Below, one piece after another: positions 8,056-64,000 of a stretch of 64,000 nucleotides of DNA. Position 1 is the first letter of the stretch. Every line of letters starts with the position of its first letter. The position numbers and the translations under genes were made by a program. The notes under the pieces are model-generated. The model was not told where the DNA came from. It was given only the letters and a program-made list of their open reading frames with translations, and did no database searches. The stretch lies in the IMG/VR virus record IMGVR_UViG_3300034062_006900, positions 12,753-76,752 of that record. One strand, 5' to 3'. Origin of the DNA: a virus.

Positions 8056-8068
8056 ATTAACCCCTTTT
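8043..8068. terminator. bidirectional terminator between convergent genes
   Basis: AAAAGGGGTT-TAAATT-AACCCCTTTT. Confidence 0.7.
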
Positions 8069-15665: not shown

Positions 15666-15671
15666 AATAAA

Positions 15672-32202: not shown

Positions 32203-32676
32203 TTAAAAATAAACTCTTCCGTTTTTTCCTGAATGTTGTTCATACCATTTACCTTCTTTATCCATCCAAACATATGGGTCTGATGGGTCTTCAGTCCACT
32301 CGTATTGATTATAGAAATCAGGTTCTTTTTTTAATAGGTTGGCTCTGTGTGAAGAATGAAACTTCTCATTACCAAACCATTTAGGATATACGATATCTTC
32401 CTCAAACGCTTCAAAGCTCATTGTGTTTTTAAATCCACGAGCAACCCACTCGTCAATTGAAAGATTAAGATATAACTTAAGTGCAGGAACATAGTCTTTC
32501 CACATAATAGTGCAAGGATGATTTAACCAACCCTTATAAGGTGTTCCATCTAATTTTGGTCTACAAGTGATTGCAGATATAATCTGATATGTTTCAACTC
32601 GTTGTTTACCCAATCTCTTATTATCCAATACTCGAAGAGATTTTCTAAAGTCGTCGTATGGTAGGAATATTTGCAT
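32203..32676 (-). CDS. pyrimidine-dimer DNA glycosylase-like protein (MSMEG_6728 type)
   Basis: MQIFLPY...LDNKRLGKQRVETYQI...NHP...SHRANLLKK. Confidence 0.8.
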   Translation of the reverse strand: MQIFLPYDDFRKSLRVLDNKRLGKQRVETYQIISAITCRPKLDGTPYKGWLNHPCTIMWKDYVPALKLYLNLSIDEWVARGFKNTMSFEAFEEDIVYPKWFGNEKFHSSHRANLLKKEPDFYNQYEWTEDPSDPYVWMDKEGKWYEQHSGKNGRVYF

Positions 32677-34016: not shown

Positions 34017-34547
34017 TTAAGAATTTTCTAATTTTGCAATCATTCTTTGTATTTTTTCTAATTCAGTTCTCAATTCTTCTAATTCTTCCTCTTTTGATTT
34101 TTGAACAGGTCTCGAATCTATAGACATGTCCCATTGTCCCCCACCAAAATCAAACCCCATAATTGGTGTCTCTACATTACTATCTTTTAAATTTAGAAAA
34201 TACAAACTTTCCATATTATTGACACATTCAGGTATGTTTCTCAATTCTTTGTTACCCGTCAGTGCAAGAAATCGTAATTTAGGTATTTGACATACTGAGT
34301 TTGGAATACTATTCACACAGTTGTGAAATGTTATGTGACCTAAATTCGATAAAGAGCCGATTGACTCAGGAACTTTCAATTTAAAATCACTTTTCGAATA
34401 ATTACGTATTTGAATTTGAACTAAATCTGAAGGTAAATCTGAAAAAACGTTTTTAATACTTCCGACATTCTCATCAGTAATATCTAAATCTAAGTGTCTC
34501 CCTTGTATATAAGGATTACGTTGCTCTATCTTTTGTGGTTTAGCCAT
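34017..34547 (-). CDS. leucine-rich repeat protein
   Basis: VPESIGSLSNL...IPNSVCQIPKLRFLAL...IPECVN; paralog of the 19112-20464 C-terminus. Confidence 0.8.
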   Translation of the reverse strand: MAKPQKIEQRNPYIQGRHLDLDITDENVGSIKNVFSDLPSDLVQIQIRNYSKSDFKLKVPESIGSLSNLGHITFHNCVNSIPNSVCQIPKLRFLALTGNKELRNIPECVNNMESLYFLNLKDSNVETPIMGFDFGGGQWDMSIDSRPVQKSKEEELEELRTELEKIQRMIAKLENS

Positions 34548-35918: not shown

Positions 35919-35945
35919 AAAAACCCCACTTTGAGGGTGGGGTCT
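35919..35945 (-). terminator. repeated CCCCAC/GTGGGG terminator
   Basis: GACCCCACCCTCAAAGTGGGGTTTTT. Confidence 0.75.
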
Positions 35946-37590
35946 ATTTAATTCCTAATTTTTTTAGTATGTATGATTCTATATCTTCCTTCTTCATCGT
36001 GTAAGGTATACGGATAAGTTTGATTCCGTTTTTCTTACAGTATTGGTTTTTTATTTCATCTCTGATTTTTTGTCTCTCAAAAGCTTCTTCACCACCAAAA
36101 GTATCAATCGCCATAAAATGTTGCCTTCCATCATATTCCACGCACACATTCTTTATTGGTATGTAAAAATCGAATGGTAGTTTTCTACAAAATCTTCCTT
36201 CTTTTTTATTCGTACAATCCACAAATTTATATTGTTTTATAAAATCTATTTTTTGTTTTTCTAATATGGCTGCAATTAATTTTTCTCCAGTTGATTCGTT
36301 ACAAATTGGACATCCTTGTCCGCTTAAGTGGGCACCAGGTCTTTGTTTAAAAGTTCCATGAACCGGACAAACAATATCAACATATTTGTTTCTATTTTTA
36401 TAGTCGACTAAAGAATAATTGTATTTTTTGCCGTGAACAATTTTAGCCGACTTAATAAAATCTTCTGTGTTACTAACATTACTCTTAGATATTGATTCAA
36501 AACCACATTTTTGACATCCACTTCCACTCATATGAGCGTGAGGTGTTTGTAAAAACTCCCCATGAATTGGGCAAATAATTTTTACACGATTATTAATACC
36601 ATCGTATTCAACTTTCGAATAATCATATTTATCATCATGAACAAGATTAGATTTGTTAATAAATTCATCTTGAGTTAAACTATTTGCTTTACCAGTATTT
36701 TCTCGGGCACATTTTGGACATCCAGCACCGTCAAGTAAGTGATGTGCCGTAACTTTAAAGTCTCCGTGTTTTGGGCAGGTAACTATAACTTTTTCTGATG
36801 CCCCTTTGTATTGGGTTTTGGAAAAATCATATTTATCTCCATGAACAATTTTTATTTGTTTGAGAAATTCTTCAGGTGATTTTCTTTGTTTTTCTGCCGA
36901 GCTTTCTATTCCACATTTTGAACAACCACTACCCCTTAAATGACTTGTAGATGTTTGGAAAAATTTTCCATGTTCTGAACAAATAATTTCAATTGGTGTA
37001 TAATTGTTTTTATAAACAGATTTTGAATAATCATATTTATCTCCGTGAATTTCTTTAGCATTTTCTATGAATTTTTGGGTATTTGTTGATGTTAAAGATT
37101 CTCTCTTTGACTTCCTATTTTGAAGGTCTTTTTCTTTGGCACAGGATGGACATCCGTAACCCATTAAATGATTTCCTGGTGTTTGTCCAAAATCTCCATG
37201 AATGGGACAGGTAATGACTACTTTTTTTCCTCCTCCTTGATAATCCACTTTTTTATATCCGTATTTGTCTCCGTGCTTTTCAATCGCTTTGTTCACAAAA
37301 CTATCCTTATTACTTGTTAACTTTTCTTTAGCACTTTCACGACCACATTTTGGACAACCTTGTGGATTAACATTTGATATAAATTTATTTGGTGTTTTGG
37401 TAAATTCCCCATGTATTGGACAAACAATGGTGACAGGTTCTCCGCTATTTTTATACTTTACCTTTGAATAATCATATTTGTCTCCGTGAATTGTTTTAGC
37501 CTTTTCAATAAATTCAGGAGTAGTTGTTTTTTTTATCTCACCAATCTCCTTCGTATGTTCACGCAATATATGTCTAATCAGTTGTTTCAT
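35944..37590 (-). CDS. six Zn-ribbon (DUF723-like) repeats plus a Vsr-like nuclease domain (homing-endonuclease-like)
   Basis: Six HG.KY.Y...CPxHG...GCxxC units; GEKLI...PFDFY...EYDGRQH...KLIRIPY; start moved to MKQLIRH. Confidence 0.8.
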   Translation of the reverse strand: MKQLIRHILREHTKEIGEIKKTTTPEFIEKAKTIHGDKYDYSKVKYKNSGEPVTIVCPIHGEFTKTPNKFISNVNPQGCPKCGRESAKEKLTSNKDSFVNKAIEKHGDKYGYKKVDYQGGGKKVVITCPIHGDFGQTPGNHLMGYGCPSCAKEKDLQNRKSKRESLTSTNTQKFIENAKEIHGDKYDYSKSVYKNNYTPIEIICSEHGKFFQTSTSHLRGSGCSKCGIESSAEKQRKSPEEFLKQIKIVHGDKYDFSKTQYKGASEKVIVTCPKHGDFKVTAHHLLDGAGCPKCARENTGKANSLTQDEFINKSNLVHDDKYDYSKVEYDGINNRVKIICPIHGEFLQTPHAHMSGSGCQKCGFESISKSNVSNTEDFIKSAKIVHGKKYNYSLVDYKNRNKYVDIVCPVHGTFKQRPGAHLSGQGCPICNESTGEKLIAAILEKQKIDFIKQYKFVDCTNKKEGRFCRKLPFDFYIPIKNVCVEYDGRQHFMAIDTFGGEEAFERQKIRDEIKNQYCKKNGIKLIRIPYTMKKEDIESYILKKLGIK

Positions 37591-37614
37591 CTCACAATAA
37601 ATATCTTTGGAATT

Positions 37615-37643
37615 AAAAACCCCCACCGTTGAGGGTGAGGGTT
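37615..37643 (-). terminator. repeated CCCCAC/GTGGGG terminator
   Basis: AACCCTCACCCTCAACGGTGGGGGTTTTT. Confidence 0.75.
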
Positions 37644-49816: not shown

Positions 49817-52408
49817 TTACGAAGCAAGGGTTGTGTATAAAACTTTATAGGTTGCACCTGTCTCATTAAAGTTTTGTGGGGTTGCAAATACCACAGGAAC
49901 TTCATACACTGAATCAGGGTAGAAAAATGAATTTAACGTTTCAGAACCTACTTCAATTCCATTTTTATAGATTATTATCGTCACTGATTGATTACCAGAG
50001 TTGTTAACAGAGAAGTTAGCAACGTATGTTTTGATAGGAGTAGTGTAGAAAGTTGGTATTGTAAATATTTTAGTTCTAACAGAACCATTATTCAGCAACG
50101 GAGTATCTTCGTCTGACATCCTAATGTTCAAATTACATCCTGTAGGATAAACATCAGAGCAAACAATTCCCGCAACATAAACAGGATTGTTAACAAACAC
50201 CCCAACGGATGGATTTATTTGCCACTCGAATGTCATTGTTTGTTCTTGTGATTGTGCTATTAGTGTTTGATTTGAAATTCCTTGTGAAGTTTGAATCATA
50301 TTAACTGAACAACAACTACATCCGTCGATAATAGCAGATACAGGAACTATTGATACGGATTGAACTCCAGTTGCTACGCAACCATTAGCTGTCGCATAGT
50401 TTAATGGTGTAATCACTGATGTTGTTTGTCCTGAAATTATATCTGTAGGTGATACTGTGACAGTAATAGTTTCTGTGTAAGTTGTCTGTTGTGTCTGGTT
50501 AGGTGAACAATTTGGTCTATCAATCAACCGAACGACAGGAGTTGATGAAGTTGGCGAAATTAATACTCCATTATCATAAAAATTATTTGTTGCAGATATT
50601 ATGAATGTAGAAGCTGGTATATTATTGTAGAATGGTCCTTCAATTTTTTGAACTACATTAGCATTCAAACTTATTGTTGCGGTTGTTCCTTGAGGTAATG
50701 GTGGATTAATACCAAGAGTCCATGAGAATATTTGAGTCGTAGCGTTTAACTGTTGTATTCCAACTACTTGAATTGATACATCATGGTTAATAGGATTATT
50801 ATTAACCTGTAATTGAAGTATCTGAGATACTATTTGTCCATTACTATCTTTAGTGAACACTGTAAATTGTCCTGCACAAAGACCGTTGAAGATATTAGAT
50901 TGTTGATAGTTTATACCATCAATAGAATATGAATATGGACCAACTCCACCTGTAGTTGGTAATATAATTGAACCATTGCATGGTCCTGATGAACATCCTG
51001 TATTTGTCACTTGAGCATTTGATATTAAAGGTAATGATGTTGGGCAATTTCCTTGACTTGCACTAACGATAAGTTGATTTGAATTAGTTCCAGCAATACT
51101 CCAAGAAGATAATGGTATTAAAGCTTGTGAATAGCTCACAGGAATTCCACCACCTGTAAATCCGTCAATTTGCCATCTATTGATATTGTTACTGTTGTTC
51201 CAATACATTGTAAGTCCGTTCGCAGAACTTGTCCACTTATATCTACCATTTTGAGTTCCTGCCGGTATAAATTGGTAAGGACCATAACTTACATTAATTC
51301 CTTGAACTGTTATACAAATATTTGGAACATTGAATGACTGTGATGGTGTGATAGTCGGTGTTAATGTTGGAGTAACTGATGGTGTTGGTCCCAACAATGT
51401 GCAAATAGTCGTTGCAGTATAATCTCCATAATAATCAACCACCCTAACAGCATAAGACCCTCTACCAATGTTTGCCAATATTTGACTTGTGCTTCCATTA
51501 TTTAACCATAAAAAACTATAAGGACTTGTTCCTCCTGTTACATTAACAGTTAAAATACCATCTATTGAAGTAGATGAACTTGGCGATTGAATTATATTAC
51601 ATGAAACTCCCAAATCAAACAAAGTTGTAACCGCGCAATCATTAATCAATTTATAAACACCTGAAGGTGTTGTAGTAACAGTTGCCGTCGGGGTGATGCT
51701 TGGTGTTATGCTTGGAGTAACAGTATTAGTTGGTGTGGGTGTAACTGTTGGCGTTTGGGTTGTCGTTGGGGTTGGTGTAGGAGTAACACAAACAACCGAA
51801 GCAGCCTGATTGAGTTTTGTGATACCGAAATTAGGTAATTGGTAATTCAGAACAACAAGTTGTCCTGCACCTGTTCCTTGTTGGAAATTTCCACAACAAT
51901 CTGTGTAATAATATGTTGTTTGAGTAACACCACTTCCGCAAACAATTGGTGTTGTTGAAGGAGTTGGAGTTGGCGTTTTTGTAAGGGTTGGTGTTGGTGT
52001 ATTAGTTGGAGTCTGAGTTGGTGTTCTTGTTAATGTCGGTGTGATAGTTGGAGTTATCGAAACTGTTGGAGTGTTTGTCGGTGTAACAGTTGTCGTAGCG
52101 GTTGGAGTAACTGTTGGAGCAACAGGTTGACAATCTGAACTTGTTGAACAAGTCCCGCCAGTTGTTATTACAATACCTGATGGTGCTGGAATCAATGAAC
52201 CTGTTATACCATATTGAAAAGTTATTTGTCCGTTATTAACACACAAATCAATTTCAATACCTGACCCACTAATAGTATAAGGATAGTTTGTATATGATTG
52301 TGGCGCAACATTAACTCCTGAACAAGTAAGATAACCTACCCATAGATTGTTTCCCCCACTTTGTAAGGCTGAATTTGGTATTAATATGCTATTGCAAAGA
52401 CAGGACAT
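49817..52408 (-). CDS. Thr-Pro-rich, Cys-rich structural protein with SprB-like repeats
   Basis: TP linkers; VTGGTSPYSFLW...GSYAVRVVD and GGVGPYSYSIDG...FNGLCAG. Confidence 0.7.
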   Translation of the reverse strand: MSCLCNSILIPNSALQSGGNNLWVGYLTCSGVNVAPQSYTNYPYTISGSGIEIDLCVNNGQITFQYGITGSLIPAPSGIVITTGGTCSTSSDCQPVAPTVTPTATTTVTPTNTPTVSITPTITPTLTRTPTQTPTNTPTPTLTKTPTPTPSTTPIVCGSGVTQTTYYYTDCCGNFQQGTGAGQLVVLNYQLPNFGITKLNQAASVVCVTPTPTPTTTQTPTVTPTPTNTVTPSITPSITPTATVTTTPSGVYKLINDCAVTTLFDLGVSCNIIQSPSSSTSIDGILTVNVTGGTSPYSFLWLNNGSTSQILANIGRGSYAVRVVDYYGDYTATTICTLLGPTPSVTPTLTPTITPSQSFNVPNICITVQGINVSYGPYQFIPAGTQNGRYKWTSSANGLTMYWNNSNNINRWQIDGFTGGGIPVSYSQALIPLSSWSIAGTNSNQLIVSASQGNCPTSLPLISNAQVTNTGCSSGPCNGSIILPTTGGVGPYSYSIDGINYQQSNIFNGLCAGQFTVFTKDSNGQIVSQILQLQVNNNPINHDVSIQVVGIQQLNATTQIFSWTLGINPPLPQGTTATISLNANVVQKIEGPFYNNIPASTFIISATNNFYDNGVLISPTSSTPVVRLIDRPNCSPNQTQQTTYTETITVTVSPTDIISGQTTSVITPLNYATANGCVATGVQSVSIVPVSAIIDGCSCCSVNMIQTSQGISNQTLIAQSQEQTMTFEWQINPSVGVFVNNPVYVAGIVCSDVYPTGCNLNIRMSDEDTPLLNNGSVRTKIFTIPTFYTTPIKTYVANFSVNNSGNQSVTIIIYKNGIEVGSETLNSFFYPDSVYEVPVVFATPQNFNETGATYKVLYTTLAS

Positions 52409-52460
52409 TTAGTTTAAATTATATATTATAATTATAAGTTTCGACTTTTATTTGTATAGG

Positions 52461-53102
52461 TTATGAACATAACGTATACGAAAGTATGTTACCATATGAG
52501 TTAACTTGAACCTGATAGATATCAGACCCCCAAACCATTTTAATAAATTTATCTCCACCATTGTATGGGTTGTAGAGGACCCCACCGAATGTTGATGTAT
52601 AAACAACTATTCCTGCAGAAATATTACCATCACTCAAATAGGTATAATAATTTTGAACTGTCAATTCATCTTCACAAGCATCACCTGATAATATGAAAGT
52701 ATTCTGACCAACAGCGTGTGGATATATCATAGGTGTTGTTGTTACTGTTGGTGTATTTGTTGGTGTTATTGTAGGTGTTTGTGTAAGAGTTGGCGTTATA
52801 GATGGTGTAATCGTAGGTGTTACTGACGCTTGTGGAGTCTGAGTTACTGTCGGTGTAATAGGTGGTGTGGTAGATGGTGTTGGTGTTGGCGTTATATTAA
52901 CAAACTCACCATATTCAAAGTCTTGAGTATCTATAATTTTTACCAAGAAGTTATCATCACTATATGAATCAGGAACAACAAATTCATATGGGAATGTTGA
53001 TACTGTAGCAACATAAACACAATCACCACTTGTTGAATCACAATAATAGATTTCAACAGGTGTGTTTGCTGTGACTGCCAATATATTAACTAATTCACTC
53101 AT
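52461..53102 (-). CDS. Thr-Pro-linker protein
   Basis: N-terminal domain paralogous to 53099-53320; central TP tract. Confidence 0.75.
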   Translation of the reverse strand: MSELVNILAVTANTPVEIYYCDSTSGDCVYVATVSTFPYEFVVPDSYSDDNFLVKIIDTQDFEYGEFVNITPTPTPSTTPPITPTVTQTPQASVTPTITPSITPTLTQTPTITPTNTPTVTTTPMIYPHAVGQNTFILSGDACEDELTVQNYYTYLSDGNISAGIVVYTSTFGGVLYNPYNGGDKFIKMVWGSDIYQVQVNSYGNILSYTLCS

Positions 53103-53320
53103 GTTGAAACTGTTTGAATTCCTGTGATTATGCAGTCTTTGCTATCAATTACCTTTAACAGATAACTTGATGATTCATCATAAGGTGATGGTATTGTAAA
53201 GCTCAATGAAGTGCTTGATGTTGTTAACATATAGAAACAACCTGTCCCGTCTGACTGACAAACGTATATATCGTATGGGGACTGTCCCGTGATTCCATTT
53301 ATGTTTACTTGTATTGGCAT
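53099..53320 (-). CDS. small Cys-containing beta-domain protein
   Basis: IYVC....GCFY...LKVIDSKDC. Confidence 0.7.
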   Translation of the reverse strand: MPIQVNINGITGQSPYDIYVCQSDGTGCFYMLTTSSTSLSFTIPSPYDESSSYLLKVIDSKDCIITGIQTVST

Positions 53321-53321
53321 A

Positions 53322-56300
53322 TTAACATCCGAAATTTCCTACGTTTATGGAACCACTTATAAATAAAACACAAGTGCTGATAACTTGGTATCCGGTTCCG
53401 ACAAATAGACCTCCTCCATTGATTGCACAAGATTCAACGTCAGAATTGGTTCCTTGTAGAATTGTTCCCGATACTGCTATTGTGTTATATTGTCCCGAAA
53501 GAGGTTTATAATAAACCACTCTTAAAGTGTAATTAACATTCTGAGAAACAACAGAATCCAAGGTTATAAACCAATCCAAATGGTCTTGTTGGTCTCCTGC
53601 ACCACAGTTTACAAATATAGAACTCGTAGAGATAACTTTTGGTGGTGGAGGTGGTGGTGTTAAACAAGCTTCACAACTTGCAAATATCGTTGGTGTCAAT
53701 CCATCAAAATAATTTCCTGAATAAGTGAATGATGATGTGTTTACATCACTTGTAACATATGATGTTTCATATTGTCCTTTGTATCCCCAACAAGTTCCAT
53801 TATTATCTTTAAACGTTTGACCAACAGTTATTGTAAATCCAGCAGGTAAAGTTTGAATTACTTCAGAGAAAGAAACACCCTTAATTATTTTCTCACAAGT
53901 CTTGAACACATAAACATAGTTTGGTGTTGGAGTTATTGTAGGAGTAACACTTGGCGTAAGTGTAATTGTTGGTGTTATCGTTGGAGTGATAGTTGGTGTT
54001 TGGGTTGGTGTTGGCGTTTTGGTTGGTGTTATCGATGGAGTCGGTGGTGGAGTCAAACCTGGTGTAGGAGTGATAGTTGGTGTAATCGTATTTGTCGGTG
54101 TTATTGATGGTGTAATTGTATTTGTCGGTGTTGATGTTGTGTTAGGTGTCGGAGTTATTGTTGGGGTTATTGTCGGAGTATTTGAAACCGTTGGCGTAGG
54201 AGTAGGTGTAGATGGAATAAGACAAGGTCCACAATTACCATAGATGTCAAGGATTTCACCAACTGTTGAGTTTGATGATATCGATGTTGTATCTGCACTA
54301 TAAGTAGCACATGTTAAATTACCATTGATATACCCAAGTATTGTAATTGGTGGTTGTAAAGTAATTCCACTATAATACAAATCTTGTGCAACATAATATG
54401 TCACTTGAGTTGTGCAATCAATTAATATCTTCGTATTAACACAAGAGAACCCTTTGTTCATCATCTCAAATGTAACAGTTCCATTTATATCCAAAGGCAA
54501 CGTAGAAGATGGTGTTGGAGTGATGGTCGCAGTAACTTGAGGTGTGATTCCCGTAATTGAGAAGTCCAAACCTGTATTACAGTTAGGTGTCGGAGTTGGT
54601 GTCGGACTAACAGGAAATGCCGTAAGGTCAATATCCAAAACGGTAATGGTTGCCGAAGGTGTTGGAACTGGTTCCCAATCACAATCAAAATATGCCAAGA
54701 AATTAAGTTGACAATCTGATGGTGTTGGTGTTGGCGTAACACATGGTCCAGTTGTGAATGAAACCGATGCAATGTCAGGACAAACTGAATAACAAGGGCT
54801 TGAACCTTGGAGGTAACAAGTTCCTCCCAATGAGTCTGACAAACACCAATAACTTTCAGTTGAAGACGTGAAATAATATATCACACCCTGAGGACTTCCT
54901 GAATATGTTAATCTACCATTATAACTTGCTCCTGCGGTATAATTTCCATTATACATTGATAGACCTGAGAATGATGTTCTTAAACAAAACTCTGTATCAT
55001 CACAAACTCCAACTGTAGGAGTTATTGTCGGAGTAACTGTTGGCGTAGGATTTGGAGTTACAGTAGGTGTCGGAGTTAGAACACAGAAAGTGCAATCGTC
55101 AAAGTCAGGTGCACCCAAATAAGGACCACCAGGTCCTGAGAATTCAATGAACTTGTAACAAACGTCATTATATACATAAGCAGCATCAACGAAAGCAACA
55201 TCCGCATCAACAGTTGCATAAAATATTTCACCATTGTCACATCTCCCCATTTGAGCCGCCCTCTTATTTGTTCTTGGACAAACTGGGTCAAGACACCCTA
55301 TAGTATTTGTAAATGTAACGCCAGAAGCATTAAAAATAGGTCCGGCACCTGTATTTGCAACAACAGTAGCACATCCACTAAAATCAGTTCCCCCTGTAAT
55401 AACATAAACATCACCAAGAATTAATTGTGAAATTCCATTTCCAAATCTAAAGAAATTGGAACCGTCATCACAATCTTGGAATTGTATTACTATTCCTGAA
55501 GTTTGAGTTGGCGTTGGAGTTGGCGTCTCAGTTGTTGTCGGAGTCGGTGTGGAGGTCGGAGTATTTGTTGGTGTTTCAGTTACTGTAGGTGTAGGAGTTT
55601 CAGTTGGTGTCTCAGTTACTGTAGGTGTTGGCGTTTCAGTAGGTGTTTCAGTTACCGTAGGAGTTGGTGTTTCAGTAGGAGTTTGTGTAGGAGTTGGTGT
55701 TTCAGTTGGAGTTTGTGTAGGAGTATTTGAAGGTGGTAATCCAGGTGTCGGAGTGACCGTAGGTGTCGGAGTGGGCGTTTCTGTCTCGGTGATAGTAGGT
55801 GTCGGAGTGGGCGTTTCTGTGATGGTTGGCGTATTTGTTGATGTAGGCGTTGGTGTTGGAGTCGATGGACAAAACAATTGTCCAGTCGAAGCTATTGGAA
55901 TTAGTGTCCCTCCTGGGTCTGTAAATACCGAACCAGTAACAACCCAAACATTTCCTGGCGAGGTTACTCTATCGTCGATAGAGAATGTTCCAAAAGAGTA
56001 TTCTTCTGAATATTCTATAGAACTATCCGCACAATTTGTTATTTGATACCATACCGATACATTAATTGGTGTAGTAGTAGGTGTTGGAGTTTGTGTTTGA
56101 GTAACTGTTGAGGTTGGTGTTGGTGTTGGAGTTGGTGTTATCGGACCTCCTCCTGATGTTTGAGTAATTGTGGGTGTTGGTGTTTGAGTTGGAGTATCAG
56201 TGATAGTTGGTGTTGGAGTAATTGTTGGGTCAGGCGTTGGGTCAGGCGTTGGGTCAGGCGTTGGGGTTGGTGTTTCGGATTCTGTAGGGGTAGGTGTTGG

Positions 56301-56567
56301 TGCCCCACATGTCCCGACTGGTATTACCGTGCTAACACCCAATACTTGGGCATCGGTTTGATAATAATAGATATTAATTGGAAATGAATTATCAATACAG
56401 GCAAATAATAGGAATACTCCAGCTGTATTATATTGCTCCGTTCCAGGATTACCACTACAATCTGTGTATCCAACAAAGAGAACTCCGTTGAGGGCAGGAT
56501 TCGAGTTTCCCGTAGCATTTGCTAAGTCTGTGCTTTGGACATTAATATCGTAATTGAAACAAGCCAT
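53322..56567 (-). CDS. mucin-like Thr-Pro-rich, Cys-rich structural protein
   Basis: Long TPT(E/V/I)TP tracts separating Cys-rich modules; TATTTAT upstream. Confidence 0.8.
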
Positions 56568-56675: not shown

Positions 56676-56852
56676 ATGAAACTTCTTAAAACGATAAAGA
56701 AGATTATACAAGAGGCTGAGGAACAGCTAAATCTTGCAAACGATTCATCTCTACCTTTGGAGGAATTGGATAAATTGGAGAAACACTATAAAGATTCTCT
56801 CAAATTATTGAATCTATATAATTCCAAAGAAAAGAAGAAAATTGGAAATTAA
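56676..56852 (+). CDS. 58-aa helical protein
   Basis: MKLLKTIKKIIQEAEEQ...; TATTTAT at 56664-56670. Confidence 0.6.
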   Translation: MKLLKTIKKIIQEAEEQLNLANDSSLPLEELDKLEKHYKDSLKLLNLYNSKEKKKIGN

Positions 56853-57562
56853 ATTTCTTTGTAGTCGTAACCCATCTTTCCTATCAGATAATGTAATTCG
56901 TTATCTTTCGTTATAATTTCTTTTATGTGTTGTGGAATTAAATTTGCGTCGAATCTATTCAAATAATTTTTCGAATCACCGAATGAGCTGTGAGTTCCAG
57001 AGACTTGTGTATTATCAAACCTTTCCGTAACATTGAATTTGTCAAGTAGTTCTACTCTTTTATCTTTATTTTGAAGCCAATCTTCATATTTGATAAAATT
57101 AACTTTACCCTCCAAACAAGCTTTTGCATGATTTTTCCAAATTTCCAAGAATTTCTCATCATAGAACGCTCTCGGCTCGTTTCGATTATGAAACATATTA
57201 ATTCTTGACACTAAATTATTGTAAAAGTCTCTTATGAAAAGTATTTTATGAGTCCTCGTGTATTCCCATCCCTTGAACACACCTCTGTTGAAAGGTGAAT
57301 TTGAATGATTTATGTGACTGTAATCCCAAAACTCATTGTCGTAAGAAATTGAAAGAATATTAGGTTTATTAAGTGTATCCATAACATTCAGACACTGTTC
57401 ATAAAATATTGTTGAGTCGTTCCAATGAGTCCAACCACAATCACCGAAAACTGTTACTTGCCATTCATTATGGTATTCAAAATCAACCATGTTTTTAAAA
57501 AACCAATTCATCATTGCATGATGACCAGAGCGAGCTAGACCAGTAAATTCTATTATTTCCAT
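56849..57562 (-). CDS. sulfotransferase-like P-loop protein
   Basis: GLARSGHHAMMNW, IRDFYNNLVSR, IKYEDW; start moved to MEIIEF. Confidence 0.6.
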   Translation of the reverse strand: MEIIEFTGLARSGHHAMMNWFFKNMVDFEYHNEWQVTVFGDCGWTHWNDSTIFYEQCLNVMDTLNKPNILSISYDNEFWDYSHINHSNSPFNRGVFKGWEYTRTHKILFIRDFYNNLVSRINMFHNRNEPRAFYDEKFLEIWKNHAKACLEGKVNFIKYEDWLQNKDKRVELLDKFNVTERFDNTQVSGTHSSFGDSKNYLNRFDANLIPQHIKEIITKDNELHYLIGKMGYDYKEI

Positions 57563-57563
57563 T

Positions 57564-58400
57564 CTATCTAATTGACAAACAAATTCCATTCTCAGAATGA
57601 CTGAGATATCCTTTTTTATTCAAATAATCCATTAAATTATTTTTTTCTCCCAACAATATATTATTATCTTCGAAAATTATTAAATTAGGAAGTAAATCCT
57701 CTCTCAGACTCATTATTAGATTAGCATCCAAACCCTCGACATCAAGATGTAACCAATCTAATTTTTCAAAATTCTGCTCCACCAAATCAGTTATGGATAT
57801 TGAATCCTTAATGGAAGATGTTATTTCTTCTGTCTCCCAATCCTTAATAACTCTTTCCACGACAGAATTGGTATATCCTCTACCTCCCTCGAAAAAATTC
57901 ACAGGTTTACCGTCAGTTGTAATTAATGAATTAATTAATTTAACATTATTTTTATTGTTGTAATTATTTTTTAATTCTTGGAATTGTTTCGAGCTAGCTT
58001 CTACCAAAACTAAATTTGAAAGATTATCGTAAACTAAAGGGCACCACTCTCCAAATTCACCGTCATGAGTTCCAATAGCTAAACCGTTTGGCATTCTACC
58101 ATCACTCATGATTTTTTTACAATACATCCAAAGTGACTTATAAAAAATAGAACCATTTGTCATCACATCCCATTTGTATTCATAAACTACATTTGATTTA
58201 GAGTCAAGAATTTTGACATTGTTCATTTCACTACTTGGAAATGATGACCACCAAAAACTATTCAAGGTAGACGACCATACTAATCTGTCTGTAACATTAT
58301 TTCTGATTTCGAGTTTTAATGGTAATTGGTCCTCAGAATATATCTTGTCAATTTGTTTCGTGTATATTTTTATTTCATTTGTGTAGATGATTTCTATCAT
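57564..58400 (-). CDS. FkbM-family methyltransferase
   Basis: IGTHDG, LVEA, LHLDVEGLD, IIFE. Confidence 0.8.
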   Translation of the reverse strand: MIEIIYTNEIKIYTKQIDKIYSEDQLPLKLEIRNNVTDRLVWSSTLNSFWWSSFPSSEMNNVKILDSKSNVVYEYKWDVMTNGSIFYKSLWMYCKKIMSDGRMPNGLAIGTHDGEFGEWCPLVYDNLSNLVLVEASSKQFQELKNNYNNKNNVKLINSLITTDGKPVNFFEGGRGYTNSVVERVIKDWETEEITSSIKDSISITDLVEQNFEKLDWLHLDVEGLDANLIMSLREDLLPNLIIFEDNNILLGEKNNLMDYLNKKGYLSHSENGICLSIR

Positions 58401-58404
58401 GATT

Positions 58405-59331
58405 TTAGATAAGAGTTAAAGTATTATGCTTTATTTTATTAACTTTCGAGGTGATTTCATATTCGTTTAAGTCATGAATCAAAAACACATTTTTAGGGTT
58501 AAATTTGTTGAAATTCAAATCAACTATATCCAAATTTCGGATTTGATATTCTTGTAAGTTATCGTCAATTCTAATTTGAATATTTAATTCCCCTTTTACA
58601 TCATAAAATAATAATTTAATTGGTGCAAGTGTCTCATCATTTTTTTCTATGAAAAATTTCACATTCGGTATCTCCGAATAGTTAAAAAAATCGTGTTCTT
58701 GGTAGTAATAAATTTCGTCCTCAACAGGTGTTTTTTCGATTTTATAATTCAAATCCTTTTGGTTCCTATGTAACCACCCGAAAGCATCGGTGCCAAGAGC
58801 CATTAGATAATTTTCTTTGGTTATTTTAGAAATGAAGTTTTTTAGATTTTCTCTATCGAAAATCATGAAGTGTAATCCAACATCCCAAATAGTTTCGCCC
58901 CTTTTTGATGGATATATTGAATTTGATTCATTCGAGTTGAGTCCTGAAATTACATTTTCATCAATTTTCAAATCGTATATCATGTGATAGAACCGCTCAT
59001 ATTCAAGATTTAATGCAATTTCACTTAGTTGCTTAACTTGTGTTAGACCTGCAAATCCGTAGTCAGAATACGTAGTTGTTATTTTGATTTTTTGTTCATC
59101 CTTGAATAATATCTTCCACATATACATCGCCTTCTCAGGCCAATCCAAGACCGGATTGTCTTTGGTAACAAAGAAATAATCACACATATCAACCACGTCT
59201 TTATCCATGTAGAATGGACTGATTAAGATGACATCAATGTTCATCGATTTTACTGAAAAGATATTTCTTTTGAGTATATCAATCTTTTCTTGTGTATCAC
59301 AAAATGAACTTATTAAAGCTACTTTTTTCAT
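58405..59331 (-). CDS. hypothetical protein, possibly glycosyltransferase-like
   Basis: Cluster context; N-terminal Rossmann-like LISSFCDT..K; YHMIYD. Confidence 0.4.
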   Translation of the reverse strand: MKKVALISSFCDTQEKIDILKRNIFSVKSMNIDVILISPFYMDKDVVDMCDYFFVTKDNPVLDWPEKAMYMWKILFKDEQKIKITTTYSDYGFAGLTQVKQLSEIALNLEYERFYHMIYDLKIDENVISGLNSNESNSIYPSKRGETIWDVGLHFMIFDRENLKNFISKITKENYLMALGTDAFGWLHRNQKDLNYKIEKTPVEDEIYYYQEHDFFNYSEIPNVKFFIEKNDETLAPIKLLFYDVKGELNIQIRIDDNLQEYQIRNLDIVDLNFNKFNPKNVFLIHDLNEYEITSKVNKIKHNTLTLI

Positions 59332-59924
59332 TTATCAATTTTTTTCAAAACCGTGAGTCCATTGTTATTAACTTTTCTTTCCCAAATAATCCAGTCTTTG
59401 TTAGAATCCAAAAACTCTTCAACCGCTGGTATCAATCCTGTAGGTAAATTTATATTATCATGTGTATCACCACCCGGTTCACCCGAACCCTCGTTTACAA
59501 ATCCAAAACTAACGGTGTCGTGTAAAATAATATATTTTTGAACTTTTCTATGGTGTCTATATAATTCTTTTTTCAATTGGAGATAATCATGCCAAGTATC
59601 AATAAACAACAACTCGCAATTATCCAAGTCGTATTCCAAAGAACTTTTTTCAACAAATTCAAAATTAATATCGGTGTCTTGAACTGCGTCATACACTTCT
59701 TGAAGATTTCCTCCAAATCTATCAGGAGAATACAGGTCTAAACTAATCATTTTTTTCGGATTAGCAGCTAAGAACGCCCAAGTGCTAACAATTTTTCTAA
59801 CCCCCATTTCAACAACAACCCCACATTCTTCAGAATACCTTTTCAATGTTTCTAAGTGTTCATTTATGTCCGAATGAATAGAACGGACTTCTTCATATTT
59901 TTGTAAAATATAGGATTGACTCAT
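59328..59924 (-). CDS. class I SAM methyltransferase (Methyltransf_24-like)
   Basis: SDINEHL, VEMGVR..VST, LLFIDTWH, ILHDT, NNNGLTVL. Confidence 0.85.
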   Translation of the reverse strand: MSQSYILQKYEEVRSIHSDINEHLETLKRYSEECGVVVEMGVRKIVSTWAFLAANPKKMISLDLYSPDRFGGNLQEVYDAVQDTDINFEFVEKSSLEYDLDNCELLFIDTWHDYLQLKKELYRHHRKVQKYIILHDTVSFGFVNEGSGEPGGDTHDNINLPTGLIPAVEEFLDSNKDWIIWERKVNNNGLTVLKKIDK

Positions 59925-59979
59925 AAAGTTTTATTTGATTAAAAATAATGTTTTACTAATTTTAAGTAAACTGATTAAC

Positions 59980-62277
59980 ATGGATAAAATGAAATTATAT
60001 TTCCACGGTTCTTATATTGGAAATACAGGATTTAATAATCATACAAGAGATTTTACAAGAAGCCTCTCAGAACATTTAGATATCAAAGTTAGAAACTTTA
60101 CTGTAGGTTCTACTTGGGATGGTTTTTCCGAAACCCCTCATGACAAGGAATCTTACATTGATGACCTTGATAAAAAAATACTATACGAACAAAATCTTTG
60201 GGCAGAAAATAAAGAAAGAAAAGATTTTAAAATTTACCCTTCAGATGAAAAAAATTTCATACACGACTTTAACATCATCCTGAATGAAACAAATCACTAT
60301 TTTTTTTACGACAATTACATCGGACCAAAAATTGGATATACTGTTTGGGAATCTACTCTTTTACCTGATGGATTTTTCAATAAATTAAAAGAATACGATG
60401 AGGTATGGACACCATCCAAGTGGCAGAAAGAATGCATGGTTAAACAAGGAATGTCAGAGGACTTCATCAAAGTTGTTCCTGAAGGAGTTGATGACCAAGT
60501 TTTTTTTCCTGAAGAGGTCGATGACGTTTTGAATGAATATAAAGACGGTAGATTTAAATTTATACTGTTTGGTAGATGGGATTACAGAAAATCCACTAAA
60601 GAAATTATCGAAACCTTCTTGAAAACATTTGACAAGTCAGAGCCTATTGATTTAATTGTCTCCATTGATAATCCTTGGGGTGAATCTATTGATGGATTCA
60701 AGTCCACTGAGGAAAGACTCAAACATTACGGATTAGATGATGAAAGAGTAAAAATTATTCATTTTCCATCGAGACAGGACTATATCAAGTTTATCAAGAA
60801 GGGTCATGTTTTTGTATCATGTGCAAGAGCTGAGGGATGGAACTTACCTCTCATCGAAGCGATGGCGAGTGGAACCCCATCAATTTATTCGAATTGTTCA
60901 GGTCAGTTGGAATTTGCTAATGGTAGAGGTATACCTGTGAACATTTTAGGTGAGACCCCAACAAATGGTAACACTTATGGTCGTTTTAGTATGGGTGAAA
61001 TACCTGGAAATTACTACGAACCCGATTTTAATCATTTATCAGAAATGATGAGACTTTCATATGAAAAATATGACACACTCAAAAAAATTGCAGTTGTAGA
61101 TTCAGAAAAAATAAGAGAAGAATTTAATTGGAAAAAAATTGGAGAAATTGGTTTTGATGCTTGTAAGTCGTTCTACGAAAAAATACAATCTAAAGAAAAA
61201 AGTGAAAATGAAATCATTGTTAGTTTCTTAGATGGTCCTAAAGTTGAAATATTAGGAAACTCATATTCAAAATATCATGTAGAGTTCTTGGATGAAAATA
61301 TGAATTTAATTCATAGTGAAACAATCACTACTGGTATGTGGACCAAAGCAAGTAGAAAATACTACACAAAATGGACGGTAAAAATAAATGGTTTGGTTGT
61401 TCATGAATTTGATTTGTCAGGTAAAAAAGTTCTAATTTCATTAGAATCTAAATCTATAGGTGATACGATTGCTTTCGCACCGTATGCTATCGAATTCGCT
61501 CAAAAACACAACTGTAAAGTAATACTCTCTACTTTTCATAATGAATGGTTCGAAGGGTCAGATTACTATAAAAAAATACAATTTATCAAACCAGGTGAGA
61601 GTGTTGGGTGTTATGCAGTTTATAAAGTAGGTTGGTTCAGAGACGATAATGATGGTTGGAGAAAATTTGATTATTATCCAAATCAGTTGAATTTACAACC
61701 TCTTCAGAAGACTGCAACGGATATATTAGGATTGGAATTCAAAGAATTGAATTATGGAGTAAAAGTAGATGTCAAACCTAAAAGAATAGAAGGGAAATAT
61801 GTTGTTATAGGGCCTCACTCTACTGCTGGGTGTAAAGAATGGCCATACGAAAATTGGAGTATCTTAGCCAAAATGTTAAATGATTTAGGATATAGTGTTT
61901 ATTCTTTATCTCATCAAGATTTCAATTATCCTCACATTAAAAATTTGAAAGAAAAAACTTGGAATGAGGTTTTTAACTATCTTATACATGCCGATTTATT
62001 TATTGGATTGAGTTCGGGTTTATCGTGGATTAATTGGGCCTTAGGAAAAAAAGGAGTAATGATTGCAGGATTTACAAAAGATGACCACGAATTTCAACAT
62101 AATCTTATTAGAATTTCTAATCCTGTTTGTATTAAATGTTGGTGTGACCCTGTTCTTAAATTTGATGGTGGTGATTGGAATTGGTGTCCTGTTTACAAAG
62201 GAACCGAACTTCAACATATATGTCAGAAATCCATAACCCCTAATCAAGTCTTTTCAGAATTAAAAAAATTATTATGA
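59980..62277 (+). CDS. GT4 glycosyltransferase fused to a TibC/Aah-like (BAHT) protein O-glycosyltransferase
   Basis: EGWNLPLIEAMASG (GT4); SIGDTIAF, FIGLSSGLSWINW and CIKCW...WCP...IC iron-finger cysteines; start moved to MDKMK. Confidence 0.85.
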   Translation: MDKMKLYFHGSYIGNTGFNNHTRDFTRSLSEHLDIKVRNFTVGSTWDGFSETPHDKESYIDDLDKKILYEQNLWAENKERKDFKIYPSDEKNFIHDFNIILNETNHYFFYDNYIGPKIGYTVWESTLLPDGFFNKLKEYDEVWTPSKWQKECMVKQGMSEDFIKVVPEGVDDQVFFPEEVDDVLNEYKDGRFKFILFGRWDYRKSTKEIIETFLKTFDKSEPIDLIVSIDNPWGESIDGFKSTEERLKHYGLDDERVKIIHFPSRQDYIKFIKKGHVFVSCARAEGWNLPLIEAMASGTPSIYSNCSGQLEFANGRGIPVNILGETPTNGNTYGRFSMGEIPGNYYEPDFNHLSEMMRLSYEKYDTLKKIAVVDSEKIREEFNWKKIGEIGFDACKSFYEKIQSKEKSENEIIVSFLDGPKVEILGNSYSKYHVEFLDENMNLIHSETITTGMWTKASRKYYTKWTVKINGLVVHEFDLSGKKVLISLESKSIGDTIAFAPYAIEFAQKHNCKVILSTFHNEWFEGSDYYKKIQFIKPGESVGCYAVYKVGWFRDDNDGWRKFDYYPNQLNLQPLQKTATDILGLEFKELNYGVKVDVKPKRIEGKYVVIGPHSTAGCKEWPYENWSILAKMLNDLGYSVYSLSHQDFNYPHIKNLKEKTWNEVFNYLIHADLFIGLSSGLSWINWALGKKGVMIAGFTKDDHEFQHNLIRISNPVCIKCWCDPVLKFDGGDWNWCPVYKGTELQHICQKSITPNQVFSELKKLL

Positions 62278-62648
62278 AAATAGAAGTATCAGTAGGTGAA
62301 ATAGTTGACAAACTTTCGATTCTATCAATAAAAAAACAGAATATTATAGAAGAATCAAAATTGAATAATGTAATCAAAGAATATGAATACTTGAAAAACA
62401 TAGTATTTAATAATTTGAAAATTGAACAACAAGATTTCGATGAAATGATTCAAGTAAATTCAAAACTATGGAAAATTGAAGATTCTCTCAGAGAAAAGGA
62501 AAAGGAAAAAATTTTTGATGAAAAATTTATAGAATTAGCTCGTTCTGTGTATTATACAAATGATGAAAGAGCCTCTATAAAGAAAAGAATTAACACTAAA
62601 TACGGTTCTGATTTCTTCGAAGAGAAATCATATTCACAATATCAATAA
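62274..62648 (+). CDS. DUF6165-like protein
   Basis: VSVGEIVDKLSILSIK...LWKIED...ARSVYYTNDERA. Confidence 0.8.
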   Translation: MKIEVSVGEIVDKLSILSIKKQNIIEESKLNNVIKEYEYLKNIVFNNLKIEQQDFDEMIQVNSKLWKIEDSLREKEKEKIFDEKFIELARSVYYTNDERASIKKRINTKYGSDFFEEKSYSQYQ

Positions 62649-62678
62649 AAAAAGGAGAGAATTACTTCTCTCCTTTTT
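62647..62678. terminator. bidirectional terminator
   Basis: AAAAAGGAGAGAA-TTAC-TTCTCTCCTTTTT. Confidence 0.8.
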
Positions 62679-62683
62679 ATTTA

Positions 62684-64000
62684 TTATTCTTTAGTTGGTT
62701 TATATTCTAATAGAACTTTATCAACATCTTTACGTTCAGCCTGTATGAAGAAATATGCCATTACTTTTCCATCAGATGAGTCAACAAAAATTTGATTATT
62801 CTCAACTTTTTGAACCCAATGTATCTTATTCTCAAGTGATGTCAATTGAACAGTAATACTCTTTTCATGAACCAAATCCACCCAGTAGTATGGTAATTCA
62901 ATCACGTTGGTTTCAGTATATCCTCTGAAATAAACACCGTGTTCTGGTCCTTCCAAGACACCGTATCTTAATCTAAACCCAGGTTTTGATGGGTGTTCGA
63001 TATCGAAAGATTTAGATGCTGCTGTGAGACTTCCTGTTGCTGTGATGTCACCTGTTATCGCTAACGTAGACCCATCGAAAGTTGCATTTGCTTCAGCGTT
63101 AAGTTCACCTGCGTTTCCTGTCGCCGTAGTAATCCTGTTATTCGCATTATTGAGAATATTTGCAGAACCACTAGTTCCTGATGAACCTGAGCTACCACTA
63201 GTTCCTGATGAACCTGAGCTTCCTGAAGTTCCTGACGAACCTGAGCTTCCTGAAGTTCCTGACGAACCTGATGAACCAGATGTTCCACTTGAACCTGATG
63301 TTCCTGATGAACCTGAACTACCACTTGTTCCTGAAGAACCTGATGTTCCTGAAGAACCTGAAGAACCTGATGTTCCTGAAGAACCTGATGTTCCCGAAGA
63401 ACCTGAACTACCACTCGTTCCTGATGAACCAGATGAACCCGATGTCCCACTTGAACCAGATGTTCCTGATGAACCTGAACTTCCTGAAGTTCCACTCGAA
63501 CCCGAAGAGCCTGATGTTCCTGATGAACCTGATGTTCCTGAGGAACCTGAACTACCACTTGTTCCTGATGAACCACTACTTCCCGAACTTCCAGATGAGC
63601 CAGATGTTCCCGAAGAACCTGAGCTTCCTGATGTTCCCGAAGAACCTGATGTTCCTGAAGAACCTGAACTACCACTTGTTCCTGAAGAACCTGAACTACC
63701 ACTTGTTCCTGAAGAACCTGATGTTCCAGATGAGCCCGATGTTCCTGATGAACCTGAACTACCACTTGTTCCTGATGAACCATTAGTTCCTGATGAGCCA
63801 GACGTTCCCGATGAGCCTGAGCTACCACTTGTCCCTGAAGAACCAGATGTTCCTGATGAACCTGAACTACCACTTGTTCCTGATGAACCAGATGAGCCAG
63901 AAGTTCCTGAACTACCACTTGTTCCTGATGAACCAGATGAACCTGAAGTTCCTGAACTACCACTTGTTCCTGATGAACCAGATGAACCTGATGTTCCTGA
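62684..64000 (-). CDS. Gly-Ser-Thr (GSS/GTS) repeat fibre protein, partial (start outside the window)
   Basis: The frame of ORF 62684-62956 stays open to 64000: (GSS/GTS)n-ANILNNANNRITTATG...KSFDIEHPSKPGFRLRYGVLEGPEHGVYFRG. Confidence 0.85.
   Translation of the reverse strand, partial: SGTSGSSGSSGTSGSSGTSGSSGSSGTSGSSGTSGSSGSSGTSGSSGSSGTSGSSGTSGSSGSSGTSGSSGTNGSSGTSGSSGSSGTSGSSGTSGSSGTSGSSGSSGTSGSSGSSGTSGSSGTSGSSGSSGTSGSSGSSGSSGSSGTSGSSGSSGTSGSSGTSGSSGSSGTSGSSGSSGTSGSSGTSGSSGSSGTSGSSGSSGTSGSSGTSGSSGSSGTSGSSGTSGSSGSSGTSGSSGTSGSSGSSGTSGSSGSSGTSGSSGSSGTSGSSGSSGTSGSANILNNANNRITTATGNAGELNAEANATFDGSTLAITGDITATGSLTAASKSFDIEHPSKPGFRLRYGVLEGPEHGVYFRGYTETNVIELPYYWVDLVHEKSITVQLTSLENKIHWVQKVENNQIFVDSSDGKVMAYFFIQAERKDVDKVLLEYKPTKE

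Follow-up and report, generated by a model that had tools for sequence, protein, structure and literature searches.

What would a phage glycosylate with a relative of the E. coli enzymes TibC and Aah? This question was raised by a 64,000-nucleotide stretch of viral DNA (the window), comprising bases 12753-76752 of the 76,752-base IMG/VR virus record IMGVR_UViG_3300034062_006900, which is 26% complete by CheckV. The right edge of the window is the contig end. Close to it, open reading frame (ORF) E encodes a family GT4 glycosyltransferase fused to a domain of the BAHT family (autotransporter heptosyltransferases; TibC and Aah). ORF E lies among candidate glycosylation genes (ORFs A-D and F) and near the gene for a proline-free, collagen-like fibre (ORF G). 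On sequence comparison, the BAHT identity of ORF E and the presence of a glycosylation island are considered secure. Our favoured reading, held with moderate confidence, is that the phage uses the island to O-glycosylate the adjacent fibre in the cytoplasm and to tailor the glycan with methyl groups and possibly sulfate. A preliminary description of the window, made from its letters alone, had outlined such a locus, and every item that it listed was recovered at its coordinates. The features at the core of the locus were:

59935-62277, plus strand: ORF E, GT4-BAHT fusion, 780 amino acids (aa) from TTG 59935 (PF00534, TIGR04414, phrog_2170, 4rap)
59986-61146, plus strand: GT4 domain of ORF E, GT-B, retaining-type (PF00534, phrog_2170)
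61198-62268, plus strand: BAHT (TibC/Aah-like) domain of ORF E (TIGR04414, 4rap)
62649-62678, no strand: hairpin (13-bp stem, T-runs on either strand) in the 35-base gap between the converging ORFs F and G
62684-64000, minus strand: ORF G, proline-free collagen-like fibre with a C-terminal globular domain of about 155 aa, its N-terminus lost beyond the contig end (PF01391, PHROG)

ORF E is a GT4-BAHT fusion

The preliminary description had put a GT4 and TibC-like fusion at the core of the locus and proposed profile searches as a check, and both halves of the protein passed. The C-terminal half scored 216.2 bits against TIGR04414, the curated NCBIfam equivalog for Aah/TibC (cut-off 200, E 6.5e-64; 218.6 bits in a second scan). 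This alignment covered ORF E residues 422-778 and model positions 7-373 of 374. The same half matched the TibC structure (PDB 4rap) with E 7.7e-37, spanning TibC residues 23-386. The N-terminal half matched PF00534 at residues 203-327 (40.6 bits, cut-off 26.4) and the phrog_2170 ‘glycosyltransferase’ at residues 18-404 (E 1.1e-30). Its EGWNLPLIE stretch was identical in 18 of 18 aligned family members, and this E-x7-E motif is what we take to be the GT4 signature. Among isolate phages, the GT4 half came closest to proteins in 127 records of Streptomyces phages and 9 of Rhodococcus phages, with identities of 24-29%. The true start of ORF E is probably ATG 59989, giving 762 aa, because the 100% identical protein-database cluster P0001 has that length.

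Residue roles in TibC were taken from PMC4358343 and mapped to ORF E through a HMMER alignment with 4rap. In TibC, D110 is the catalytic base, T226 and K230 bind the beta-phosphate, W305 contacts heptose O4, and C339, C342, C358 and C370 form an iron finger (PMC4358343). Each of these positions was kept in ORF E. The catalytic Asp is D510, the phosphate ligands are T630 and K634, the sugar-contact Trp is W698, and the finger is C732, C735, C751 and C763. The Asp, the Lys, the Trp and all four Cys were invariant in the 24 phage BAHT domains aligned, and the T226 site was Thr in 20 and Ser in 4. The three motifs singled out earlier thus aligned to functional parts of TibC: GDT.AF to D110, FIGLSSGLSW to the P300-W305 stretch, and CxxCW...WCP...C to the four Cys, which are predicted to bind iron in ORF E as well. 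Judged from the alignment, the C-terminal 357 residues of ORF E are truly related to the BAHT enzymes, with the catalytic core preserved and the donor-base contact altered.

The fusion is essentially viral

In the protein database, 1,810 of the 8,000 proteins scored matched the fusion at E<=1e-5. Across at least 90% of the query, each of the best 120 shared 60-100% identity with it; their lengths were 760-778 aa in 118 cases and 700 and 988 aa in the other two. In IMG/VR the fusion was found on at least 551 contigs (551 of 599 pattern matches confirmed), the longest of 294,914 bases. Among cellular genomes, with each of 185,579 prokaryote species represented by a single genome, 12 loci were confirmed, all of them on contigs of metagenome-assembled genomes (MAGs). 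With at least 551 viral contigs against 12 MAG contigs, the fusion is essentially viral.

To describe its neighbourhoods, ORFs of the 80 best loci and the window were clustered, and one representative of each cluster was annotated with Pfam. In the majority arrangement the fusion lay inside a tail module, followed by an 83-aa protein and then, two genes downstream, by the tail sheath, whose cluster was present in 57 of the 81 loci. A collagen-like fibre stood before the fusion, accompanied in some loci by a GT4+GT25 protein, 2-oxoglutarate (2OG)-Fe(II) oxygenases or other transferases. The arrangement of the window was shared by about 15 loci. In these, PT-rich proteins, several copies of the ORF B and C families, a hexapeptide acetyltransferase and a DegT aminotransferase preceded the fusion, and DUF6165 or FkbM and then the fibre followed it. 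Elsewhere the neighbours included epimerases, nucleotidyltransferases, UDP-galactopyranose mutase, a carbamoyltransferase, GT2, GT9 and radical-SAM proteins. Because the neighbouring genes vary in this way, the island may be described as a variable glycan-building set around a constant BAHT core.

One cultured phage carries a relative of ORF E. Microcystis phage Mel-JY01 (PP395634, L001:3065-8430) encodes a 1,226-aa GT4-methyltransferase-BAHT triple fusion (TIGR04414, 317 bits), in which an FkbM/methyltransferase segment lies between GT4 and BAHT. It is annotated only as ‘methyltransferase FkbM’.

In many relatives (L059, L061, L064, L065, L066, L073, L074, L085, L087 and others; clusters 9, 20, 8 and 21), Pro-type collagen stood beside GT4+GT25 proteins, PF13640 2OG-Fe(II) oxygenases and a 2OG-oxygenase+GT2 fusion. 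By analogy, this set looks like a kit for collagen hydroxylation and glycosylation, reminiscent of mimivirus L230 and animal LH3/GLT25D1.

BAHT domains track proline-free Ser/Thr collagen

The locus had been described as lying between Thr-Pro-rich genes on one side and a Gly/Ser/Thr fibre on the other, and the compositions agreed. ORF G contained 93 consecutive Gly-X-Y triplets without a single Pro: X was Ser in 58 and Thr in 35, and Y was Ser in 91, Asn in one and Ala in one (PF01391, E 3e-41). Its C-terminal part matched phrog_17490 (E 1.3e-30) and phrog_28536, and this domain adjoined the fusion in 8 of the 80 related loci. ORF G is presumably a virion protein, and its Pro-free repeat a putative triple helix. 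The gene converges on E-F across the single hairpin, which is terminator-like and may act in both directions. Two further open frames over the repeat, an acidic PDEPELP-repeat frame (63024-63998, plus strand) and a QEHQV-repeat frame (63061-63999, minus strand), are by-products of the triplets; only the Gly-X-Y frame runs on into the conserved domain.

The association of BAHT and fibre was examined in both directions, counting as collagen-like any ORF with at least 20 triplets. In the forward set (80 fusion loci and the window), a collagen-like ORF was present in 37 of 81 loci and lay within two genes of the fusion in 20. Eighteen of these 20 near genes were proline-free, with a Ser/Thr share of 0.61-0.99, the exceptions being L051 and L052. 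Collagen-like genes more than 4 kb from the fusion were mostly Pro-containing, with a Ser/Thr share of 0.05-0.39.

The reverse set consisted of 71 viral loci fetched only by the ORF G repeat (GTSGSSGT-type), 65 of which had Ser/Thr collagen. Within the DNA examined, a BAHT domain was encoded in 21 of these 65 (19 at >=188 bits and 2 at 26 bits) and in 2 of the remaining 6, which had a Ser/Thr share of 0.48-0.50. The control set was fetched by the Ala/Pro/Gln collagen repeat of the first fibre of the window, one of three:

8052-14490, minus strand: three tandem collagen-like fibres (679, 701 and 764 aa) with Ala/Pro/Gln/Thr triplets and a C-terminal Peptidase_S74 chaperone domain

No BAHT was found in the 69 control loci, and the test and control sets held equal DNA (1.11 and 1.12 Mb). 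The difference between 21/65 and 0/69 gave a Fisher p of about 3e-8, uncorrected for relatedness. The co-occurrence across phages that had been proposed as a check thus gained support for the Gly/Ser/Thr fibre from both directions; the Thr-Pro proteins were found beside the fusion in only 7 of 80 loci. The BAHTs at Ser/Thr-collagen loci were mostly not fused to GT4, occurring as stand-alone proteins of about 400 aa or in other fusions of 700-1,230 aa. It is thus the BAHT domain itself that tracks the repeat.

Giant Ser/Thr collagen fibres adjoined the fusion in some relatives (L092:13153-23146, L027 and L067/L068), with frames of 3,328 aa and 984 triplets, 2,454 aa and 715 triplets, and 2,030 aa and 380 triplets.

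Flanking genes encode candidate tailoring enzymes

ORFs D, C, B and A formed a tight operon, divergent from ORF E, in which no overlap or gap exceeded 26 bases. The flanking genes were:

56849-57589, minus strand: ORF A, 246 aa, sulfotransferase-fold protein (AlphaFold model, VIA-align, Foldseek)
57564-58400, minus strand: ORF B, 278 aa, FkbM-family methyltransferase (PF05050)
58405-59331, minus strand: ORF C, 308 aa, GT-A/nucleotidyltransferase fold at residues 1-212 and a C-terminal beta-sandwich (AlphaFold2 model)
59328-59924, minus strand: ORF D, 198 aa, possible class I S-adenosylmethionine (SAM) methyltransferase (Methyltransf_24/CmcI-like), first gene of the operon (atlas lead, hhalign)
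62274-62648, plus strand: ORF F, 124-aa helical DUF6165 protein (PF19662, 37.5 bits, cut-off 27)

None of ORFs A-F contained a stretch of transmembrane strength (maximum 19-residue Kyte-Doolittle mean <=1.30), and all six enzymes are predicted to be soluble. Pfam scans of the window and contig returned no flippase, polymerase or ligase-like gene.

Two methyltransferases had been proposed. ORF B stood, with PF05050 at 28 bits against a threshold of 22.7 (TIGR01444 reached 32 bits, below its cut-off of 37.7), and it had homologues in 25 of 80 related loci. ORF D gave no Pfam or NCBIfam match above threshold and, at E up to 5, one chance-level Pfam match (E 0.088). Its atlas lead had a score of 0.97, but Pfam families were present on only about 20% of the cluster members. 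In hhalign it aligned with the Methyltransf_24 neighbours of related loci (54.7%, E 1.2e-4, 37 columns over LLFIDxxH...HD). These matches weakly suggest that ORF D is a methyltransferase.

The sulfotransferase-like gene of the preliminary description, ORF A, was supported by the fold of its model and by no sequence family: no Pfam or NCBIfam match was obtained, even at E 1 to 5. All 50 VIA-align rows listed for the AlphaFold model (pLDDT 90.7) were PAPS-sulfotransferase-fold proteins (PAPS, 3'-phosphoadenosine 5'-phosphosulfate). These aligned about 200 of the 246 residues with Z 10.2-11.4 and root-mean-square deviations of 3.6-4.8; Foldseek gave E 6e-4 to 1e-2. Residues R20-S21-G22-H23-H24, R120 and S128 were invariant across 43 homologues. 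We take the RSGHH loop and R120...S128 to be the 5'-phosphosulfate-binding (5'-PSB) and 3'-phosphate-binding (3'-PB) loops that hold PAPS. On its model, ORF A is a putative PAPS-dependent sulfotransferase, and homologues occurred in 5 of 80 related loci.

The contig upstream of the window encodes two overlapping genes (L003:10539-11361), a 133-aa nicotinamide mononucleotide (NMN)-adenylyltransferase-like protein (NF002243, 39.8 bits, below cut-off) and a 146-aa adenosine 5'-phosphosulfate (APS)-kinase-like P-loop protein (PF01583, 64.7 bits against 21.1; TIGR00455, 72.6 bits, below 138.7). The same part of the contig also has a NUDIX gene (L003:6176-6631). The overlapping pair could be a split NadR-type NAD salvage enzyme or could supply PAPS to ORF A. 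The second role was not counted as support for the sulfotransferase, as NAD salvage is equally possible. No APS kinase was seen near the ORF A homologues in L031, L033 and L034, and the cytidylyltransferase of these three loci was unrelated to the one in this contig.

ORF C had been listed as a possible extra glycosyltransferase. Its AlphaFold2 model, built from a 43-row alignment, had pLDDT 94 and a nucleotide-diphospho-sugar-transferase fold. Foldseek gave 45 PDB matches at E<=1e-3, including 3cgx, the LH3 glycosyltransferase domain, glycogenin and PBCV-1 A64R. In VIA-align (Z 12-13.6), glycosyltransferases and sugar nucleotidyltransferases tied, so that the fold stands and the choice between these two activities does not follow from it. 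An invariant Y119-D120 followed the fourth strand; there was no canonical DxD, no Gly-rich nucleotidyltransferase loop, and no Pfam match at E up to 5. Homologues were found in 25 of 80 related loci and were often fused to methyltransferases, either to FkbM (L031, L033, L034) or to Methyltransf_11/25/31 (488-aa forms). ORFs B and C shared a single-linkage cluster because some proteins fuse both domains; the idea that the two are similar proteins was rejected (BLASTP E 2.9).

The DUF6165-like gene was confirmed as ORF F by its PF19662 match. Its ATG overlaps the ORF E stop (ATGA), and its position was the same in 6 of 80 related loci. Literature searches for DUF6165 and DUF4254 returned only passing mentions.

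A proposed pathway for fibre glycosylation

We favour glycosylation of the fibre because of the BAHT identity of ORF E, the soluble enzymes, the position of the fibre gene, the association across phages, the Rosetta-stone fusions that join parts of the island (GT4-methyltransferase-BAHT in Mel-JY01, ORF C-FkbM and ORF C-Methyltransf_11), and precedent. In the proposed pathway, either ahead of virion assembly or in the course of it, the BAHT domain of ORF E would put the first sugar on the many Ser/Thr residues of the Gly-(Ser/Thr)-Ser fibre. Its GT4 partner domain, together with the GT-A-fold ORF C, would add more sugars. The methyltransferases ORF B (FkbM) and ORF D (CmcI-like) and the sulfotransferase-fold ORF A would then tailor the glycan, with the translationally coupled ORF F as an accessory. 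The particle would then bear a collagen-like fibre that is densely glycosylated and either brush-like or stabilised by its glycans. We infer the acceptor, the order of steps, the sugar, the sulfation and the place of the fibre in the virion from the genes, and the fibre as acceptor is the best supported of these parts.

Donor sugar and the limits of the association

Several observations weigh against this pathway, and the first group concerns the donor. In TibC, R286 contacts adenine N1 and is the basis of ADP-sugar specificity, P300 governs D,D-heptose selectivity, F265-V266 is the hydrophobic beta-hairpin thumb tip used in dodecamer assembly, and F368 is a thumb contact (PMC4358343). The R286 position is V679 in ORF E, in a loop aligned by sequence only. 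It was Arg in 4 of the 24 phage BAHT domains, all stand-alone ORFs of about 400 aa, and V, I, T, L or A in all 20 multi-domain forms. The thumb pair is F663-N664 in ORF E (in a gapped alignment), and most other phage forms had polar pairs. The P300 position is S693, Ser as in Aah, and the F368 position is His. With R286 replaced by Val and the thumb pair by Phe-Asn, both the donor and the oligomeric state may differ from those of TibC.

The earlier remark that no nucleotide-sugar synthesis gene was visible also held: none was found among ORFs of at least 90 aa in the window and the 12.8 kb upstream of it in the contig. None of the 5 viral records searched contained gmhA, and 4 of the 5 lacked rfaE domain II; the 98%-complete, 294,914-base genome that carries the fusion lacked both. 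Because R286 is lost and this relative has no heptose-nucleotide genes, heptose is not established as the donor, and the ‘heptosyltransferase’ label of the preliminary description was not carried over. Use of a nucleotide sugar other than ADP-heptose by the BAHT domain is, from its residues, a live possibility.

The second group concerns the fibre. The orthologous fibre in L051 and L052, with the same C-terminal domain, is Pro-containing and has a Ser/Thr share of 0.06-0.07. In the DNA examined, no Ser/Thr collagen was seen in 59 of the 81 fusion loci, many of which have truncated flanks, and no BAHT was seen in 44 of the 65 Ser/Thr-collagen loci. The loci are related to each other and include duplicates (L131/L132, L125/L153, L104/L105 and L146/L168), so the Fisher p overstates independence.

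Alternative acceptors

Other virion proteins could be the acceptors, namely Thr-Pro-linker proteins, Ser-rich non-collagen fibres, the sheath or the capsid. Directly upstream of the island lie PT-linker genes:

53322-56567, minus strand: Thr/Pro-linker-rich, Cys-rich protein, 1081 aa, putative virion protein (phrog_15511, E 6.8e-23)
49817-53320, minus strand: three further PT-linker genes (863, 213 and 73 aa), putative virion proteins (composition, PHROG)

The 1081-aa protein is 21% Thr and 13% Pro and has 37 Cys. The 863- and 213-aa proteins are Cys-rich with PT linkers, and the former matched phrog_26672 ‘virion structural protein’ (E 1e-8). The Thr-Pro proteins may themselves be glycosylated. 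In Mel-JY01 the gene just upstream of the fusion encodes an 18%-Ser repetitive ‘structural protein’ without a Gly-X-Y repeat, and in 15 loci a fibre-like protein rich in Ser, Thr and Gly (about 260 aa; cluster 15) comes after the fusion. The many fusion loci with no Ser/Thr collagen in view point the same way. Homologues of the 1081-aa protein, however, stood upstream of the fusion in only 7 of 80 loci, and those of the 863-, 213- and 73-aa proteins in 1 to 3. The Thr-Pro-rich proteins are therefore a lineage-specific neighbour and not a general partner, whereas the link to Ser/Thr collagen holds across BAHT architectures. We consider these proteins improbable as the acceptors in place of the fibre, although the two possibilities are compatible and not exclusive.

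A slightly weaker candidate is the host surface. The island might remodel a lipopolysaccharide (LPS) O-chain, capsule, adhesin or S-layer, for example to block superinfection, and leave the particle unmodified. This is how glycosyltransferase clusters next to the tail-fibre genes of aquatic myophages are usually interpreted (PMC7029224, PMC12801897). The enzyme mix is also like that of O-antigen clusters, with GT4, GT-A, methyltransferases and a sulfotransferase here and an aminotransferase, acetyltransferase and epimerase in relatives. The island nevertheless has no membrane-embedded or lipid-carrier enzymes, all its proteins being predicted soluble, and its core is a BAHT. Known BAHTs act on the repeated Ser of proteins, the sole acceptors characterised for them (PMC4358343). 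BAHTs of several architectures track Ser/Thr collagen (21/65 versus 0/69), and the fusion is nearly absent from cellular genomes (12 MAG contigs for 185,579 species). Host-surface remodelling is thus judged unlikely.

Glycosylation of phage DNA bases to escape restriction, a role often proposed for phage glycosyltransferases (PMC10202952, PMC12619734), is very improbable here, as BAHT, GT4 and sulfotransferase-fold proteins are not DNA glycosyltransferase families, Pfam scans of the window and contig turned up no hydroxymethyl-pyrimidine pathway genes, and the island sits in a structural and fibre context.

The phage and its other genes

Gene content in PHROG and Pfam scans indicated a large tailed phage, with SbcCD, primase, a sigma factor, DnaJ, DNA methylases and the three collagen-like fibres with the Peptidase_S74 domain. 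No close isolate was found: megablast of window positions 40000-62700 against 50,697 phage records gave no match. The SbcC-like and DnaJ proteins had only remote matches (22-34% identity), to huge uncultured phages and to Microcystis phage Mel-JY01. The DnaJ and the low G+C bring to mind the ‘moraphages’ of Bacteroidota (PMC12619734), a likeness offered only as a thought. No tRNA gene was found in the window.

The G+C content was about 0.33 generally and 0.48-0.50 across collagen-like genes; the tandem fibres at 8052-14490 raised it locally to the latter values. Other phage proteins, all on the minus strand (21713-22639, 15366-15995, 32203-32676 and 35944-37626), were a DnaJ complete with J, CXXCXGXG and C-terminal domains, glutaredoxin and thioredoxin, a pyrimidine-dimer DNA glycosylase and a DUF723/HNH-type homing endonuclease. 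Two more minus-strand genes (19112-20464 and 34017-34547) gave weak leucine-rich-repeat matches below cut-off (LRR_8, LRR_14), and both matched phrog_6688.

Comparison with known systems

The closest characterised systems are TibC-TibA and Aah-AIDA-I of E. coli (BAHT; TIGR04414; PDB 4RAP/4RB4), with full-length homology to the C-terminal 357 residues of ORF E. The catalytic Asp, the Thr/Lys pair, the Trp and the four-Cys finger are shared, and here too a long Ser-rich repeat, the candidate acceptor, is encoded next door. Unlike these systems, ORF E is viral, has an N-terminal GT4 domain and is accompanied by tailoring enzymes. It differs from TibC at R286 (Val), P300 (Ser, as in Aah), V266 (Asn) and F368 (His), and its 98%-complete relative lacks heptose-nucleotide genes. 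The candidate acceptor is a Gly-X-Y repeat in place of the beta-helical passenger of an autotransporter; Pfam scans of the window and contig returned no autotransporter domain, and the neighbour of ORF E is the collagen-like fibre.

The repeats of BclA collagen-like proteins contain Pro, as GPT. The phage repeat, in contrast, has none and is a putative target of glycosylation, and the BclA glycosyltransferases are unrelated to BAHT. BclA proteins of Bacillus and Clostridioides spores carry O-glycans that are thought to aid hydration and the stability of the hydroxyproline-free helix (PMC8968730), and for BclA3 the glycosyltransferase is SgtA (PMC7157674).

Mimivirus hydroxylates and glycosylates its collagen (PMC8968730). 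As is proposed for the phage described here, it encodes collagen-like proteins together with enzymes for their glycosylation (L230 hydroxylase/glycosyltransferase), but it glycosylates hydroxylysine, uses a different enzyme family and has a eukaryotic host. Mimivirus-like genes (2OG-Fe(II) oxygenase, GT25 and 2OG-oxygenase-GT2) stood by Pro-type fibres in related phage loci and not in this window. Mycobacteriophages are reported to carry glycans on the C-termini of capsid and tail-tube proteins (Freeman et al. 2023, as cited in PMC12619734). They likewise encode glycosyltransferases for their own structural proteins, as is proposed here, but their system is not known to include a BAHT domain or collagen-like acceptor. 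For glycosyltransferase clusters of aquatic phages, the routine interpretation is modification of the host surface or of DNA (PMC7029224, PMC12801897, PMC10202952, PMC12619734).

Significance for large aquatic phages

Literature searches for phage BAHT, TibC or O-heptosyltransferase returned nothing relevant, and no paper describing this system was found. To our knowledge, a few actinobacteriophages are the only phages for which glycosylation of particle proteins has been demonstrated. A bolder extension of the favoured reading is put forward tentatively, as one that may well prove wrong. In it, large aquatic phages would make proteoglycan-like fibres, proline-free Gly-Ser/Thr-Ser chains (up to 984 triplets in relatives). 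A viral TibC-like clade that lost the adenine contact and works with some donor different from ADP-heptose would O-glycosylate almost all side chains of these fibres. The glycans would carry methyl groups and, here, sulfate, and the glycan, not the protein sequence, would set stiffness, charge and host recognition.

A mostly viral TibC-type enzyme on at least 551 IMG/VR contigs that tracks Ser/Thr collagen would, if fibre glycosylation is true, point to a widespread layer in the chemistry of virions. Host recognition, particle stability and the prediction of receptor-binding proteins from sequence would all be affected, and the BAHT family would extend beyond autotransporters. The fibres would be a natural test case for whether O-glycans can stabilise a collagen helix without proline, and the soluble enzymes might serve for hyper-glycosylating designed repeat proteins. 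Microcystis phage Mel-JY01 provides a cultured relative in which this reading can be examined.

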